A stretch of DNA of 50,275 nt from a virus (lineage: Duplodnaviria; Heunggongvirae; Uroviricota; Caudoviricetes). Under the pieces are notes generated by a model. The model had not been told where the DNA came from, did no database searches, and worked only from the letters and a program-made list of their open reading frames with translations. The first letter of the stretch is position 1; every line of letters begins with the position of its first letter. Positions 27,532 to 45,878 of the stretch are shown piece after piece. The stretch spans positions 97,169 to 147,443 of IMG/VR virus record IMGVR_UViG_2974540528_000001; one strand, given 5' to 3'. Position numbers and translations under genes: made by a program.

Positions 27532-27894
27532 ATGCAAATTTACAAAGTTACTACCGAAGGTGATTGCGAAGGCCGTACAACTAAACTACTTGGTTACGTA
27601 AAGGCAAACAGTCCGGCACATGCAATCAAATTCTTGGAAAGTATTGGCAAACACGCTCACTACCAATACTGGATTGACGTTGAGAATAGCTTGGTCATTG
27701 AAGCAACTCCAGAATCAGATCTTAATCACTTGATTGCGGAGATCGAACCCCCCTGTTATGAAGGTGGTTCTTTCAAAGGTGTTGTAAAATCAAACTTGCA
27801 GGTTTTGCAAGAGAAAAAACAAAAAGTTAAAGATGCTCTTCTTCGTTCGGGGTTGTCCTACGAAGACGTTGTTAAATTCGGAAAGGATGATTGA
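27532..27894 (+). CDS. Hypothetical protein
   Basis: GAGGA RBS. Confidence 0.8.
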   Translation: MQIYKVTTEGDCEGRTTKLLGYVKANSPAHAIKFLESIGKHAHYQYWIDVENSLVIEATPESDLNHLIAEIEPPCYEGGSFKGVVKSNLQVLQEKKQKVKDALLRSGLSYEDVVKFGKDD

Positions 27895-32377: not shown

Positions 32378-32980
32378 TTGAAATTAAGAAAAAAGGTTTT
32401 TAGTGTTGGAATAATGGATGTAACCACACCTGTGGCTACAAGAAACCCAAACTGGAGGTGCCCATACTATTCAAGATGGTTGTGGATGCTGACAAGATGC
32501 TATGACCCACAATACTTGGAGAACCATCCCTCTTATAACGGGGTGTCCGTATGCTCTGAATGGCTCGTATTCAGCAATTTCAAAGCATGGATGATGTCTC
32601 AAGATTGGGAAAATAAGGCTCTTGACAAGGATATCCTTGGTAATGGTAAATTATATTCCCCAGAGACCTGTGTTTTTGTTACTCAATCTTTGAATAACTT
32701 CTTTTTGTCTAGGGATTCTGCAAGGGGCGATTATGCGCTAGGGGTATCTTTTTACAAAGGTAAGTTTTGTGCAACAATTCGAGAGAACGGTAAAAGTATC
32801 TATTTAGGAAGATATGATGACCAAATTCTTGCCCATCAGGCATGGCAAAAAAGAAAGATATTGCAAATAAATAACATCATTGCTACAGTTGAGGACCAAA
32901 GACTTAAAGATGGCCTTTGTAGAAAGGCAAACGTACTAAAAGAAGACATCAAAAATGGGAGGTTAACATCAAATATCTAA
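32378..32980 (+). mobile_element. Free-standing HNH-type homing endonuclease with AP2-like C-terminus
   Basis: W..ML.RCY..VC.EW..F.NF..W..LDKD..YSPETC; AT-rich coding. Confidence 0.7.
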
Positions 32981-33501
32981 CTATTTTAATAGCACTACTA
33001 ACAACACTCTCAACAGGCCCAGTCATCGCGGAGCCTCTTAAAAGTGCTGCAAAGAAGCCCAAGGTAATTCATCTGTGCAAAAAAGATGATACAGCGGTAA
33101 ACATCTTGGCATGTAATATGTATCGAGAGGCCCGTGGAGAAAGCGACTCCGGGTTAATGTCGATCGCATTCGTGACTTTGAATCGTAAGGATAACGACAA
33201 ATATCCGGGGACCGTAAAGAAGATTGTCTACCAACCAGGACAATTCTCCTGGACATCTTCAGGAACAACGTTTAAAGTCTATGAAAAGGATCGCTGGGAT
33301 AAGGCACAAGAGTTTGCTAAAGTTCTGATCAAGATTCATAAACAGAACAGGGTCGTTTACGATGCTCTGGACATAACACACGGGGCCACTCACTACCATT
33401 CACGAAAAGTAAAACCCTACTGGACAAAGGCCATGCTACGCACAGTCAGGATCGATAACCATATATATTATAAAGAGAAAGAAGATTCTCAGGGGGCATG
33501 A
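32968..33501 (+). CDS. SleB-like cell wall hydrolase with signal peptide; apparent ATC start
   Basis: LACNMYREARGE, VYQPGQFSW, GATHYH; GGGAGGT RBS before ATC 32968. Confidence 0.8.
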   Translation: MKYLTILIALLTTLSTGPVIAEPLKSAAKKPKVIHLCKKDDTAVNILACNMYREARGESDSGLMSIAFVTLNRKDNDKYPGTVKKIVYQPGQFSWTSSGTTFKVYEKDRWDKAQEFAKVLIKIHKQNRVVYDALDITHGATHYHSRKVKPYWTKAMLRTVRIDNHIYYKEKEDSQGA

Positions 33502-40342: not shown

Positions 40343-41035
40343 TTGAAGAAGAAAGTGATCATTCTTTATGATTACACTTCGGTCATGGCCCGTCCTTGGT
40401 TAGAGGCTGGCTATGAGGTTTGGACTTTTGATGGTCAACATTCACCAGGAGTCACCCGCGAGGGTGACCTTGTTAAAGTCGGGATGTGGTTCTTCCACGA
40501 CAAGACCGTTCAACAAGCTCAAGAGATCAAAGAAATGGTTGGTGACAATGTTCACATCGTCTTTGGTTTCCCGGAATGTACTCACCTGACCAATGCAGGT
40601 TCACGTCATTGGGCTAAGAAAAGAGCAGCAAACCCTAACTTCCAGAAGGAAGCAATGGAACTTTGCCTATTGGTAGAGAAGGTTGGAGATTTATATAATG
40701 TTCCGTGGGCCTTTGAAAACCCTGTCGGTGTTCTCTCTTCAATGTATCGAAAACCTGATTACATGTTTGATCCTAAGGATTACGGCGGGTATCTCCCAAC
40801 CACTGATATACACCCACTATATCCGCACGTATACCCTCCTCAGGACGCGTATAACAAGAAGACGTGCATTTGGATGGGCAATGGCGCAAAACAGCCTGAC
40901 AAGCTTCCTGTGAAGGAATTGTACAAGGACAATCCAGGCTGGAAGAAGTGTGGTGGCAAATCCACCAAGACTAAAAATATTCGTAGTTGTACACCTCGCG
41001 GTTTTGCGGAGGCGTTTTACCAGAAAAATAAATGA
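40343..41035 (+). CDS. Divergent DNA cytosine-5 methyltransferase
   Basis: FPEC (motif IV variant), ENPV, YNKKTCIW, RSCTPRGF; TTG start after GGGAGG. Confidence 0.7.
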   Translation: MKKKVIILYDYTSVMARPWLEAGYEVWTFDGQHSPGVTREGDLVKVGMWFFHDKTVQQAQEIKEMVGDNVHIVFGFPECTHLTNAGSRHWAKKRAANPNFQKEAMELCLLVEKVGDLYNVPWAFENPVGVLSSMYRKPDYMFDPKDYGGYLPTTDIHPLYPHVYPPQDAYNKKTCIWMGNGAKQPDKLPVKELYKDNPGWKKCGGKSTKTKNIRSCTPRGFAEAFYQKNK

Positions 41036-43107
41036 GAGGGATAATGGGAAATGGACCGGATTGGGCGGCGTATCGCAAAGGTGGCAATGAAAACCCAAGA
41101 GCAGGTTTTGGAAGTAATCGCGGAGGCAAGTTGAGTTATAGTAACAATCGAGCAGAAGAGACCCTGGAATCAGTGCTGTCTGGCACCCGCATCATGGCTG
41201 TTCCCGAAATGAGTCTCTCTCTTGAAGCAGCACAGTATTTTAAGATCCGTTCTGCGGTATCCCCGGCGGATGGTATCACCCCGGTAGCAACATACTTGCC
41301 CTATTATGATAAGTATGGGAAACTGACGGGATTCAAGAAACGTGACTGGACGTTACAGAAGGAAAAGACAGGACACTTTTCAACTGTTGGTGCTGTGAAG
41401 GCATCATCTCAGTTCTTCGGGCAGCATGAAGCCTCTATGGGTGTTGGTCGTAAGCAGATCAATATCGTGGAAGGTGAAGGTGACGTATGCGCCGCATGGC
41501 AGGCAGCGTATGAGATGGTTAAGGCTATGTCCACCAGTCCAAAGGCCAGTAAAGGCGTTAAAGACTGGGCGGATAGCATCTTAAAAGGTATCCGTCATAT
41601 TCAGAACGACGAGGACATTGGAGGTCTTCCGACACTACCCTATGTTGGATTAAACTGTGGTACTGCAAACGCTGTTGATACTTTCGCAAACAACGAGAAG
41701 TTCATTCGCAGTTATGAGAAGGTAGTCTTGGGCTTTGATAACGACGAAGCCACAGCATTAGAAAAAGAAAAGAAAATAAAGAAAGGTAAAGAAGCAACCG
41801 ACGATGTCGCTAGCTTCCTGCTGTCAGAAAACATTTACGTTGTGCGATATCCTAACGAGCGTAATGACCCGGATGGCTTTAAAGACATTCGTGACATGTA
41901 TGATGCAGGTAAGGTACGCGAGCTTTATGCAATGTTTACCAAAGCAGACGATCGCTATGTTCCTGATAAGCTTATCGGTCTTAAGGATATTACCATTGAG
42001 AATCTTCGCAAGAAGAAAAAAGATGGTGTTCCATTACCAGGGCTACCCGGCCTATATAACCTGACCCGTGGCCCCCGTACTGGTGAGCTTTGGACATTGA
42101 CAGGCCCGTCTGGTGGTGGTAAGTCTACAATCTCTCGTAAGATTGAATACGCGATCATTGATTATCTTCGTGATATGTCAATTCCCCGCCTAGATGGCTG
42201 GACCGAGAGTGAGAAAGTAGCCATCATCCGTCTGGAAGAGGATGAAGAAGAGTCTGTAAACAGCTTGTATGCTGAAGAGCTGAAGGTGGACCCTAAGGCA
42301 TTTGTTGCTGACCCGGAGCAGTTCTTAACCGAAGAGCAACACCTTGAGATTCACCAACGCTGGATTCGGGAAGATAAGATTAAGATCTTTGATCACTTCG
42401 GTTCTATCCCGACAGACCAGCTTATTCAGAAACTTAAGCAGATGGTGTTCCTTGATGGTTGTAAATGGATCATCCTCGATCACCTGTCAATGGTAATCTC
42501 TGGTCTTAAGTCCGACAACGAACGTCGAGACCTTGATAACATCATGACCGAGCTGGCAGCTTTCTGTAAGAAGTACGATGTTTTCATCTTATCAATCAGC
42601 CACATGAAGCGTAAAGAACTTCAGCTTCCGAAAGATAAAGATGGGAATCTATTGCCGTTCTGGTATCCGGTCCGTAAAGAAGACCTGCGCGGTTCTGCGG
42701 CCCTTGAACAACTCTCATGGGTGGTTCTGGGTGTTGAACCAGAAGAGCTTCCTGACCGCTCCCGTGGACGTGTACGTATCGTGGTGCTGAAGAACCGCCC
42801 ACACAAAAAACTGGGTATCGCTGATACAATGGTTATGGATGACAACGGGCAGTTCTCCGATGCTTCCGGCTGGGAATGGGAAGATGGGATGTTCAAGCTT
42901 AATGGTGAAGTTATGCTTCGTCCTCAGAGCCTGATCCATCAACTATCCCTGGAAACTCCGGTTGGAAAGGTCAATGTCCCGGCACCTGAGTATAAGCCAA
43001 CCATCGATCTTGACAGGACCCCCGTTCCTACTCTTGGTCCTGACGATGATACGCCTTTCGCCCCGATAGGATTGCAATACGCAAAACATGCAATTTATGT
43101 AATTTAA
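41032..43107 (+). CDS. Primase-helicase (T7 gp4-like); alternative start 41044
   Basis: TOPRIM VEGEGD and GFDND; Walker A GPSGGGKST; ILDHL; LRGS; KNR. Confidence 0.9.
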   Translation: MRGIMGNGPDWAAYRKGGNENPRAGFGSNRGGKLSYSNNRAEETLESVLSGTRIMAVPEMSLSLEAAQYFKIRSAVSPADGITPVATYLPYYDKYGKLTGFKKRDWTLQKEKTGHFSTVGAVKASSQFFGQHEASMGVGRKQINIVEGEGDVCAAWQAAYEMVKAMSTSPKASKGVKDWADSILKGIRHIQNDEDIGGLPTLPYVGLNCGTANAVDTFANNEKFIRSYEKVVLGFDNDEATALEKEKKIKKGKEATDDVASFLLSENIYVVRYPNERNDPDGFKDIRDMYDAGKVRELYAMFTKADDRYVPDKLIGLKDITIENLRKKKKDGVPLPGLPGLYNLTRGPRTGELWTLTGPSGGGKSTISRKIEYAIIDYLRDMSIPRLDGWTESEKVAIIRLEEDEEESVNSLYAEELKVDPKAFVADPEQFLTEEQHLEIHQRWIREDKIKIFDHFGSIPTDQLIQKLKQMVFLDGCKWIILDHLSMVISGLKSDNERRDLDNIMTELAAFCKKYDVFILSISHMKRKELQLPKDKDGNLLPFWYPVRKEDLRGSAALEQLSWVVLGVEPEELPDRSRGRVRIVVLKNRPHKKLGIADTMVMDDNGQFSDASGWEWEDGMFKLNGEVMLRPQSLIHQLSLETPVGKVNVPAPEYKPTIDLDRTPVPTLGPDDDTPFAPIGLQYAKHAIYVI

Positions 43108-43118
43108 TACCAACTGAG

Positions 43119-43159
43119 AGGTGGGCGACGGTACAGTCTAGCCCACCTTGAATAGGAGG
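43119..43159 (+). promoter_or_regulatory. Hairpin immediately 5' of the polymerase Shine-Dalgarno
   Basis: AGGTGGGC-GAC/GTC-GCCCACCT stem, then AGGAGG. Confidence 0.6.
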
Positions 43160-43163
43160 AATC

Positions 43164-45878
43164 ATTAAAGGTCTGTTTATACTGGATAACGAGGCCGATG
43201 GCCTGTTAGACGAAGTAACGAAGTACCATTGTACTTTGCTGAAAGAATTTGGGGTCAACAACTGGAATCTGTTTTTAGACCCCGCACACCCAGAATATGA
43301 AAGCGCTGTAGCCTTTGCCAGGAGCAAGAAGGATGTTAACCTTACAATTCGTTCATACGACGAGCTGGAAAGCTTCCTGAAGACGTGTAGGGCCATTGCG
43401 TGTCACAACCTGTTTGGCTATGACCTGCGTCTATGGAAGAAGTTATCGGGCATTGAATATGATATGTTCAAAGATCCGAAGTGCATGGGGACGATTGGGG
43501 ATACACAGGTAAATCTCTACGACACCCTCTCTATGAGCCGTGTGCTTTATCCTGACCGTCCATTACCTAACGGTTGCCCTGACTCTGTTCTTAACCCGGT
43601 AACCGGGAAACGAGACCGTGTAGGTCCTCATGGCCTGTTGGCCTGGGGCTACCGCGTAGCAAACAAGAAAGTTCAGATCGATGACTGGCGTAACCAACCA
43701 TTGTGGGAATACGTTAACCGTGTCTGGGAAGACGTTTTAATCAACGAATTGACATGGCAATCCCTGATCGATGAATCTACAGGTGCTCGCTGGCCTGATG
43801 ACAAGCAGTTCATGTACAAAGATAAGCCGGAAGGGATGCGGCAGATCAACTGGAAGAACGCGCTACGCCGCCGTATGTTGACTGATTACCTGATGATTGA
43901 GCAAGAAATTCAGGGTGTTCCATTCAATAAGCATGAAGCTGAAAAGCTGAGAGACCGTATTGATGTAATGATGAAAGAGATTGAGGAAGAAGTAGAACCT
44001 CAACTCCCGCTCAAAGAGATGACGAAGTCTCAACAGCCAAAATTCCCTGCTAATCCTTTTGATGGTGCAGGAAGAATTTCCCATCACGGGTGGAATTGGT
44101 TAGAATACAAGCTGGGCTATCCAGTTAATCGTGAAGCGCTGGAATTCAAAGGTCCACCGAAGACGGCGTTTAAAGGTAACGGTGATGTAAGTGCAGCAGG
44201 GGAAAGATACTGTATCCAGAATGGTGTTGAAGACCCGGCAGCGATGCCAGACTTCATTAGAAGCCAGATAAAGAAAGAGAATACCCTTGTCCCATTGCCA
44301 CCAGACCTAATGGAAAAGGCAATTGCCGATCTTCGTGCTGGAAAGATGCCAGACCTGATGGTTCCGATGAAGATCTCGAACCAGGACGACATCAAGAAGT
44401 ATCTGATCCGCGATGCGGGATGGAAACCAACGCTCTGGCGTGTTAAAGATGTGACGAAAGACCAGTTCAAAAAGACCCGCGATGATGCGGAGGTTGATGG
44501 CCTGGTGCGTAAGTACATCGAAGAACTTGGAGAGTCTGAGTATAAATCTCTGATTCTTGAGCACTTAAATAATAGTGACGCAAAGTTCAATATCTCGGAA
44601 AACAAGTTCGACCATCGTCATGGTTCTGATCGTGTTTACGAGGAGATCTTCAAGAAGTTCAGACGCAAAGCTCGTCAACTGCCGACGTCACCACAGTTGA
44701 AGGATAACTTTGGCAAGCTGTGTCCCAACCTTGAAGTTATCGATGTTCACTTGGCTAAACAGATTGTTAAGTGGCTGTCATTACGTAACCGTCGTTCTGT
44801 TCTCGACCCTATTGACGAGGATAAAAACGATACAGGGCTGTTGAATCATCCTCGCCTGGCGATTGATGGAAAACTTCCAGCTCGTTTCTCTGGTATCACT
44901 AACACCGGGCGTTGTAAGCACACCATTTGTGCAAACATGCCTAAGCCAGACCCTAAGGTGTTGTTGGGTAAAGAGATGCGTGGCCTCTGGGGTGTTACCG
45001 ATGAATATTACCAGGTCGGTATCGATGGTTCTAACCTCGAAGGTATGATCGCGGCATGGGGTGCATATCAGTTCGATGGTGGTGAATACCTCCGTATCAT
45101 GGAAAGTGGAGATGCCCACGCACGAAACGCCGAGGCATACACCAAAGCTTCTGGTACTCTGGTAACGCGTAACGGTGGTAAAGGGGTAACCTACGGCATC
45201 ATGTATGGTGCTCAGGCAGCTAAGATTGCAGCAATGCTTCACATTTCCCTTGACAAGGCACAGGCGGTAATCGATGCTTTCTGGGATAGTAACTTTGGTT
45301 TGAAAGGTCGTAAAGAATGGCTTGAAAACTTCTGGGAAGCAACTGGGAAACGTTATATCCCTGGCCTCGATGGTCGTAAGATTTGGACCCGTTCTAAGCA
45401 CTCTCTTCTGAATGCTTTCCAGCAAAATGGTGGTGCATCTCTATTCGATCTGGTTGGTATCCTGCTTCACTGGGAACTGATCAAGCGTGGCTGGTATGAT
45501 GATGACGTTCGTCGCCTGATTTACTACCACGATGAATACCAGCTTCAGGTTCCTAAGAAATACCTGAAGAAGTGGGAGTTTGACACCCTGGAAGAGGCAA
45601 CAGCTTTCGTAAAAGAATGGGAAGCAAAAGGCCGCGTATTTGACGGGCATGAGTGGAGAAAGGCCGTCAAAGATGAAAATGGTGATAAAGTCAAGGATGC
45701 GGAAGGCAATACAGTCTACGAGGGTATTTTTGGAGAGGATGGTAAAATTCACATCCAGTATTGCCCTGTTGGTGAAATGGTTGTAAAATGTGTAGAGAAG
45801 GCCGCTCGTATCATGGGAAGCCCCGTGCATATTACAGGAGCATACCTGACTGGACGATCCTGGGCTGATTGCCATTAA
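43164..45878 (+). CDS. Family A DNA polymerase with 3'-5' exonuclease; apparent ATT start
   Basis: ExoI DNEADG at 43185 onward; motif A DGSNLE, motif B K..TYG..YG, motif C HDE. Confidence 0.92.
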   Translation: MKGLFILDNEADGLLDEVTKYHCTLLKEFGVNNWNLFLDPAHPEYESAVAFARSKKDVNLTIRSYDELESFLKTCRAIACHNLFGYDLRLWKKLSGIEYDMFKDPKCMGTIGDTQVNLYDTLSMSRVLYPDRPLPNGCPDSVLNPVTGKRDRVGPHGLLAWGYRVANKKVQIDDWRNQPLWEYVNRVWEDVLINELTWQSLIDESTGARWPDDKQFMYKDKPEGMRQINWKNALRRRMLTDYLMIEQEIQGVPFNKHEAEKLRDRIDVMMKEIEEEVEPQLPLKEMTKSQQPKFPANPFDGAGRISHHGWNWLEYKLGYPVNREALEFKGPPKTAFKGNGDVSAAGERYCIQNGVEDPAAMPDFIRSQIKKENTLVPLPPDLMEKAIADLRAGKMPDLMVPMKISNQDDIKKYLIRDAGWKPTLWRVKDVTKDQFKKTRDDAEVDGLVRKYIEELGESEYKSLILEHLNNSDAKFNISENKFDHRHGSDRVYEEIFKKFRRKARQLPTSPQLKDNFGKLCPNLEVIDVHLAKQIVKWLSLRNRRSVLDPIDEDKNDTGLLNHPRLAIDGKLPARFSGITNTGRCKHTICANMPKPDPKVLLGKEMRGLWGVTDEYYQVGIDGSNLEGMIAAWGAYQFDGGEYLRIMESGDAHARNAEAYTKASGTLVTRNGGKGVTYGIMYGAQAAKIAAMLHISLDKAQAVIDAFWDSNFGLKGRKEWLENFWEATGKRYIPGLDGRKIWTRSKHSLLNAFQQNGGASLFDLVGILLHWELIKRGWYDDDVRRLIYYHDEYQLQVPKKYLKKWEFDTLEEATAFVKEWEAKGRVFDGHEWRKAVKDENGDKVKDAEGNTVYEGIFGEDGKIHIQYCPVGEMVVKCVEKAARIMGSPVHITGAYLTGRSWADCH

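Follow-up and report, generated by a model that had tools for sequence, protein, structure and literature searches.

The DNA polymerase gene described here very probably begins translation at an ATT codon, ATT 43164, a position fixed by comparison with relatives. Its leader carries a hairpin whose pattern of sequence change indicates, again with high confidence, an RNA element in which structure and loop sequence are both selected. The best explanation of the whole, which we consider about evenly balanced between right and wrong, is that two independent devices, an AUU start and a hairpin operator, act on the polymerase ribosome-binding site. The window, meaning the whole stretch of 50,275 nucleotides that was analysed, is the final 50 kb of a 147,443-nt phage record. 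Its polymerase (43164-45878) has 99.9% protein identity to the DNA polymerase of Klebsiella phage VIK251, and positions 43000-43400 are 100% identical in three GenBank phages; judged by these matches, the source phage is a Mydovirus (Vequintavirinae) corresponding to VIK251. The enzyme is a T7 gp5-like family A polymerase in which the Pol A domain (PF00476) and the ExoI, II and III carboxylates are present, and T7 gp5 is its nearest solved relative in both sequence and fold matches. The gene, its neighbor and its start region are laid out as follows.

41032..43107, + strand: T7 gp4-like primase/helicase, the upstream gene (Pfam DnaB_C and AAA_25; VIK251 annotation)
43149..43151, + strand: in-frame TGA, which rules out any start further upstream (sequence)
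43154..43159, + strand: Shine-Dalgarno AGGAGG, 4 nt before ATT (sequence; start survey)
43164..43166, + strand: ATT, inferred polymerase start codon (orthologous column holds initiation-type codons alone in 43 distinct contexts)
43164..45878, + strand: family A (T7 gp5-like) DNA polymerase, 904 aa counted from ATT (Pfam DNA_pol_A, PF00476; PDB matches to T7 polymerase; phage homologues)
43185..43193, + strand: ExoI motif of the 3'-5' exonuclease, D8-N9-E10, in beta strand 1 (T7 gp5 alignment; 28 homologues; predicted structure; fold matches)
43236..43238, + strand: TTG taken as the start in public annotations, equal to Leu25 and lacking a Shine-Dalgarno (VIK251 and KB57 annotations; CTG or GTT in relatives)

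The original prediction, that a complete polymerase needs a non-canonical start, described this region accurately. The TGA in frame at 43149-51, the AGGAGG at 43154-59, the 4-nt spacer and ATT 43164 are all present, and the D-N-E motif (43185-93) does lie upstream of TTG 43236, the first ATG, GTG or TTG in the stop-to-stop frame 43152-45878. The codons that follow ATT 43164-66 encode K-G-L-F-I-L-D-N-E, and at TTG 43236 the best Shine-Dalgarno match is 3 nt. A 4-nt Shine-Dalgarno spacing is found at 7 of the 47 surveyed starts in the window, and the 3-nt spacing of the relatives with ATG is low; short spacing as a detuning device was rejected, 4 nt being ordinary in the source phage. Sequencing error was likewise rejected as the origin of the ATT, which is identical in independent genomes; direct inspection of VIK251, KB57, Ro1 and several metagenome contigs shows it there too. 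Two further reading frames were set aside. A GTG within the hairpin, considered as a start or uORF, changes frame among relatives and is blocked by the TGA in the window, and an antisense ORF of 122 codons (43028-43396, - strand) over the leader and polymerase N-terminus is interrupted by stops in 4 of 9 relatives and is likely a shadow frame.

Comparison with relatives identifies the initiating codon. Across 43 distinct contexts, the ATT 43164 column shows ATG (28), TTG (6), ATA (6) or ATT (3) and no other codon, and the codon preceding it is unconstrained, stops included; it is this combination of initiation-type codons alone next to an unconstrained codon that fixes the start position at 43164. 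ATG occupies the column in PVP-SE1, 4MG, GAP31, Av-05, the Certreviruses and ICP1, TTG in Erwinia phages and some Vibrio-like phages, ATT in Mydoviruses without an HNH gene at the start, and ATA in FENT2, KE23, LNA4, SSE121, NINP13076 and phage 40. Downstream of the column, codons 2-3 keep encoding K/R-G while varying silently. Over codons 2-24, the window differs from the ATA-type Seunaviruses by 5-8 silent differences and 0-1 replacements, and from a distant ATA/ATT lineage by 10-13 silent and 2-5 replacement changes. ATC/ATA and CTG had been named beside ATT as candidate starts, and of these ATT 43164 is upheld: the position of ATC 43161 reads GTC, GTT or GCC in other ATT/ATA phages, and CTG 43173 is an ordinary leucine codon. 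Relatives with ATG had been anticipated as grounds for refutation; ATG does occur in many of them, and this confirms the position of the start while speaking against a conserved IF3-sensing role for the codon.

The N-terminus that this start supplies carries the ExoI residues of a proofreading exonuclease. Residues 7-30 can be aligned to the start of T7 gp5, placing D8 on D5 and E10 on E7, the residues changed in the D5A/E7A structures among the fold matches. D8, E10, D87 and D190, which are carboxylates of ExoI together with ExoII and ExoIII, are invariant in 28 homologues. In a predicted structure of residues 1-200, D8 and E10 sit on the first strand (E4-11) with pLDDT >90, and the best fold matches to this model are T7 polymerase. 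The enzyme shares with T7 gp5 an ExoI D-x-E on the first strand, an ExoII N-x-x-x-Y-D and an ExoIII Y...D, and differs from it in length (904 aa, as against 704), in its non-AUG start and in the upstream hairpin. By this comparison and the model, the first 24 codons appear to be translated. Initiation at CTG 43173 (codon 4) or at TTG 43236, with the ATT untranslated, is a most improbable reading. Codon 4 is TTG, and annotated as the start, in some ATA-type Seunaviruses, and a start there would retain D8/E10; against this, codon 4, 13 nt from the Shine-Dalgarno, runs through five leucine codons (CTG, TTG, TTA, CTT and CTA), and the two codons before it show the silent variation of coding sequence noted above. 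A start at 43236 would drop ExoI, and this codon 25 is CTG or GTT in relatives lacking a canonical start.

Gene finders miss the ATT start, and public annotations are affected accordingly. Identical 22 N-terminal residues beginning with Ile are encoded in 25 GenBank records, in 17 of which the first 22 codons carry no annotated feature; in four other records checked, the annotated start is an upstream GTG or codon 4. The VIK251 and KB57 annotations start the polymerase at TTG 43236, and a protein cloned from such an annotation would miss two catalytic residues of the proofreading site. Separately, the rV5 record (NC_011041) has one extra base compared with relatives just after the polymerase ATG, splitting off a 26-codon ORF and leaving an annotated polymerase of 775 aa without ExoI; this extra base is probably a sequencing error. 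In a distant polymerase gene (L099:445-639) the calls break near codon 63, giving two genes that lie in different frames, which may reflect a frameshift or an assembly error.

Other genes of the source phage may have unusual starts as well. A SleB-like cell wall hydrolase (32968-33501, + strand) has an apparent ATC start at 32968 behind GGGAGGT, which gives a signal-peptide-like N-terminus, the first canonical start coming 46 codons later; its relatives without an upstream HNH gene have TTG at the 32968 position or one codon before. The endonuclease VII gene, at 69087 of the phage's own genome and outside the window, may start at an ATC 4 nt after GGAGG. An ATC occupies the corresponding position in the endonuclease VII gene of SalP219, which is annotated from a GTG five codons on, and Ro1 differs. 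Finally, the ORF called at 27532 would gain 20 codons from ATT 27472 (+ strand), which is preceded by AAGGA at 5 nt and may be chance.

The leader between the primase/helicase stop and the polymerase Shine-Dalgarno is occupied by the hairpin, which lies 10 nt 3' of that stop in the window.

43118..43149, + strand: conserved RNA hairpin with a 9-bp lower stem (43118-26 with 43141-49), a 2-nt 3' bulge (43139-40), a 3-bp upper stem (43127-29 with 43136-38) and a 6-nt loop (fold, covariation)
43130..43135, + strand: loop GGUACA, consensus RRUAYA, candidate protein-binding face (alignment of 16 variants)

An 11-bp bulged hairpin ending 5 nt before the Shine-Dalgarno had been foreseen and is present at 43119-43148 (8+3 = 11 bp); an extra G-U pair (43118-43149) brings it to 12 bp. 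Its folding energy is -19.7 kcal/mol (z = -4.05), matched by 1 of 200 shuffles. Covariation in relatives, proposed earlier as a check, is found: among 12 variants with the 2-nt bulge, 8 of the 11 pairs show two-sided compensatory change and 99% of cells are paired, compared with at most 51% in slid registers. Two-sided change occurs in 28 cells in these variants, against 8.0 in shuffles, a control that ignores relatedness and that related sequences may exceed even without structure. The upper helix is 100% paired in 16 variants reaching down to ~53% protein identity, and RNAalifold, unaided, returns the same structure. Across the same 16 variants the loop keeps its RRUAYA consensus, with the U, the A and the last A invariant and the bulged A nearly so. 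G-U occupies 8 cells and A-C none, which points to the mRNA strand. In 18 leaders the spacing between loop start and Shine-Dalgarno stays within 22-25 nt. With a covariance model, the hairpin is found once in the phage's own 147-kb genome, and each of five relatives likewise has a single genuine copy. This single-copy status rests on the covariance model, since a simple pattern descriptor gave about one match per shuffled genome. A second model match in Av-05 was discarded: the sequence is a perfect inverted repeat that follows the major capsid gene and resembles a terminator on the opposite strand. No match to Rfam 15 reached the gathering score (two chance-level matches both fell outside the hairpin), E. 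coli genomes yielded no copy of the hairpin, and a terminator scan of 42700-43400 found no terminator-like site and no U tract after the stem. A helix extending the hairpin to sequester the Shine-Dalgarno, seen in minimum-energy folds, was rejected as no stronger than with shuffled flanks in 18 leaders.

Could the loop bases instead be a DNA element, such as a promoter -10 box, with the inverted repeat incidental or a DNA-level site? Certrevirus-like relatives, which lack the hairpin, have a conserved TTGAYC-N17-TAnnnT promoter-like signature ~59 nt before the polymerase start, and the window loop reads TACAGT, 4/6 of the -10 consensus. The sixth base of this TACAGT, however, varies (T, A, C) with stem pairing and is not a fixed T; there is no -35 at the proper distance and a sigma-70 promoter scan of the + strand found none, and changes to G-U but never to A-C favor an RNA read from the + strand. 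We therefore consider a DNA-level role highly improbable. In one Certrevirus-like locus (L026), the promoter-like signature remains before an inserted gene, 568 nt upstream.

The hairpin is found in Mydo-, Seuna-, Avuna- and Vequintaviruses, in Erwinia phages and in two metagenome phages (~65% protein identity). With the covariance model, no hairpin was found in Certrevirus-like phages, in ICP1 or at two distant metagenome loci of an unclassified lineage, L074 and L075. The polymerases of these two loci, 63-64% identical to that of the window and 83% to each other, start at ATA (L074) and ATT (L075) behind GGAGGTG, with an in-frame stop just upstream. The L074 protein is ~1215 aa and so carries a large insertion. 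The hairpin maps to one branch of the tree and on that basis appears to have arisen once. Four changes are needed to explain the ATT/ATA state on an unrooted tree of 56 N-terminal sequences, from which the frameshifted rV5 record and two short loci are excluded, and well supported branches force at least two of these changes; as the tree is unrooted and phages recombine, these counts do not separate gain from loss. Grouping all ATT/ATA rows together is rejected (p-AU 4e-5). We infer that the weak ATT/ATA start arose at least twice in this polymerase family.

HNH genes have inserted in this region more than once. They lie upstream of the hairpin in KB57, KE23 and GAP31 and at the start codon in NDO71, L056 and L078. 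Where the insertion is at the start codon, the hairpin and Shine-Dalgarno remain together and now precede the HNH gene, and the polymerase begins at an ATG that overlaps the stop of the HNH gene, an overlap annotated for NDO71 and L078. Such an overlap would hand hairpin control to the polymerase via coupling.

These distributions bear on how start codon and hairpin relate. The hairpin is found with ATG in rV5, PVP-SE1 and Av-05, and with TTG in other relatives, and ATA or ATT occurs without the hairpin in L074 and L075, so a joint unit is not obligate. On the evidence of these sequences, the hairpin and the odd start are separable, independent devices. The original prediction had gone further, proposing that polymerase dosage is set jointly by an IF3-sensitive start and by autogenous repression. 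There are points in favor of this model, with the AUU start taken as a selected IF3 sensor. The context resembles that of E. coli infC, with GGAGGAAT before and AUU-AAA-GG at the start in both; in vitro, added IF3 inhibited AUU more strongly than the other codons (PMC5499595); and ATT is kept across many Mydoviruses. A sensor would nevertheless be expected to keep its codon across orthologues, and the column is instead dominated by ATG. Close relatives with the same hairpin use ATA, ATG or TTG, and AUA is little affected by IF3 (PMC5499595). The AAA-GG context is common to the relatives with ATG and hence older than ATT, and where an HNH gene has inserted in Mydoviruses, the polymerase has gone back to an ATG start that is coupled. 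Nor do the IF3-sensitive start and the hairpin behave as the one unit that had been proposed, each occurring without the other among relatives. Since ATT has been exchanged for ATA, TTG and ATG, and hairpin and start vary independently, a selected IF3-sensing circuit is unlikely, and we rate the full joint model as quite improbable. A phage search with a short, approximate IF3 peptide gave no match, a result too unreliable to be used.

Most likely, the start codon acts as a dampener of polymerase synthesis. The AUU at 43164 would be read as fMet behind a strong Shine-Dalgarno, yielding the full 904-aa enzyme with its proofreading site intact, and the weak codon would be a plain dampener for which AUG, UUG, AUA and AUU are interchangeable settings. 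Discrimination against the AUU by IF3 would follow as a by-product, probably not one that is selected for. Confirmed AUU starts are very rare in enterobacteria, with two in E. coli (10.1101/063800); the AUU of pcnB (poly(A) polymerase I) limits a harmful enzyme (PMC2939334). In one E. coli reporter study AUU, AUA, AUC and CUG gave 1-2% of AUG (10.1101/063800), whereas AUU reached 48-74% in an optimised in vitro system (PMC5499595), so the weakness of AUU depends on context. In vitro, IF3 clearly inhibits AUU, and AUA is much less sensitive (PMC5499595). Like E. coli infC and pcnB, the gene described here has AUU as the first codon of a functional frame behind a good Shine-Dalgarno, and its context is nearly the same as that of infC over the Shine-Dalgarno and the first eight coding bases. 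These infC-like bases are shared by the relatives with ATG, so the likeness covers the context and not ATT as such. In contrast to infC and pcnB, the gene encodes a phage replicative polymerase and the codon alternates with AUA, UUG and AUG among relatives; unlike that of infC, its product is not IF3, and there is no feedback loop.

That the hairpin works as a translational operator is the reading to which we lean slightly. Invariant loop bases, a freely covarying stem, a single copy and a fixed place beside the Shine-Dalgarno are the hallmarks of a protein-bound translational operator. The hairpin is an older, single-copy element, and a protein on its loop and bulge would block 30S access to the adjacent Shine-Dalgarno. 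Against an operator, the hairpin leaves the Shine-Dalgarno uncovered, and its short distance to the upstream stop (10-20 nt) would also suit a function for the upstream cistron, at its 3' end. This leads to an alternative in which the ATT start is right and the hairpin serves mRNA processing or stability, or ribosome loading, rather than repression. In that capacity it could stop exonucleases where the helicase cistron ends, shield the 5' end left by cleavage, or itself be the site at which a nuclease cuts. In its favor, every leader read has a stable, GC-rich stem 10-20 nt downstream of the preceding stop, and Shine-Dalgarno sequestration is not above chance. Yet invariant bases in loop and bulge would be superfluous in a simple barrier. 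Processing sites usually recur within a genome, and this hairpin is single-copy. It is also kept before ATG starts and so is not a helper specific to weak codons. Taken together, we see processing or loading as a rather unlikely role, and return to the operator.

Its likeliest ligand would be polymerase not engaged on DNA, as for T4 gp43, which represses its own mRNA through a hairpin adjoining the ribosome-binding site (PMC3014915). As in T4/RB69 gene 43, a single hairpin with a conserved loop on a variable stem lies just 5' of the polymerase Shine-Dalgarno. The loop starts 31 nt before the start codon in T4 gene 43 and 34 nt before it in the window, and the stem ends 6 nt before the Shine-Dalgarno in T4 and 4-5 nt before it here. 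The elements themselves differ. T4 gene 43 has a 5-bp stem and an 8-nt loop with UAAC; the hairpin described here has a 12-bp bulged stem and a 6-nt RRUAYA loop, so that, set against the T4 loop AAUAACUC, the UAAC/UAAA determinant is absent, which counts against a T4-like operator. T4 gp43 is a family B enzyme with an AUG start, compared with family A and ATT here, and any likeness to the T4 gene 43 operator would be convergent. To our knowledge, no family A polymerase represses its own mRNA. By analogy, then, binding of the operator by the phage's own polymerase is a tentative proposal that we hold to be less likely than not, and less probable than the operator itself. Another phage or host protein, such as the primase-helicase, an SSB or a RegA-like repressor, would fit the conservation pattern equally well. 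A general repressor, though, would be expected at several sites, where one site per genome is found, and the T4 precedent is of a polymerase acting on its own leader (PMC3014915); we think such a ligand unlikely.

A literature search, which covered few subscription journals, found no report of this polymerase start or hairpin. The AUU starts of infC and pcnB and the polymerase operators of T4-like phages are already known. What is new is the covariation of the hairpin, its single-copy status, its range across clades, its independence from the start codon and the second ATA/ATT lineage without a hairpin. An essential replication gene uses AUU/AUA in at least two separate lineages, and the hairpin is an uncatalogued cis-element whose natural variants pair it with four start codons, providing a ready test series for whether a family A polymerase has acquired sequence-specific binding of RNA and repression of itself. 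If the polymerase binds the RRUAYA hairpin, autogenous repression would have arisen separately from that of T4 gp43, in another family of polymerases. Should this be true, an autogenous hairpin would be conserved across rV5-, PVP-SE1-, Av-05- and Mydo-like phages, with AUU/AUA starts, evolved repeatedly, serving as a second brake in some lineages.
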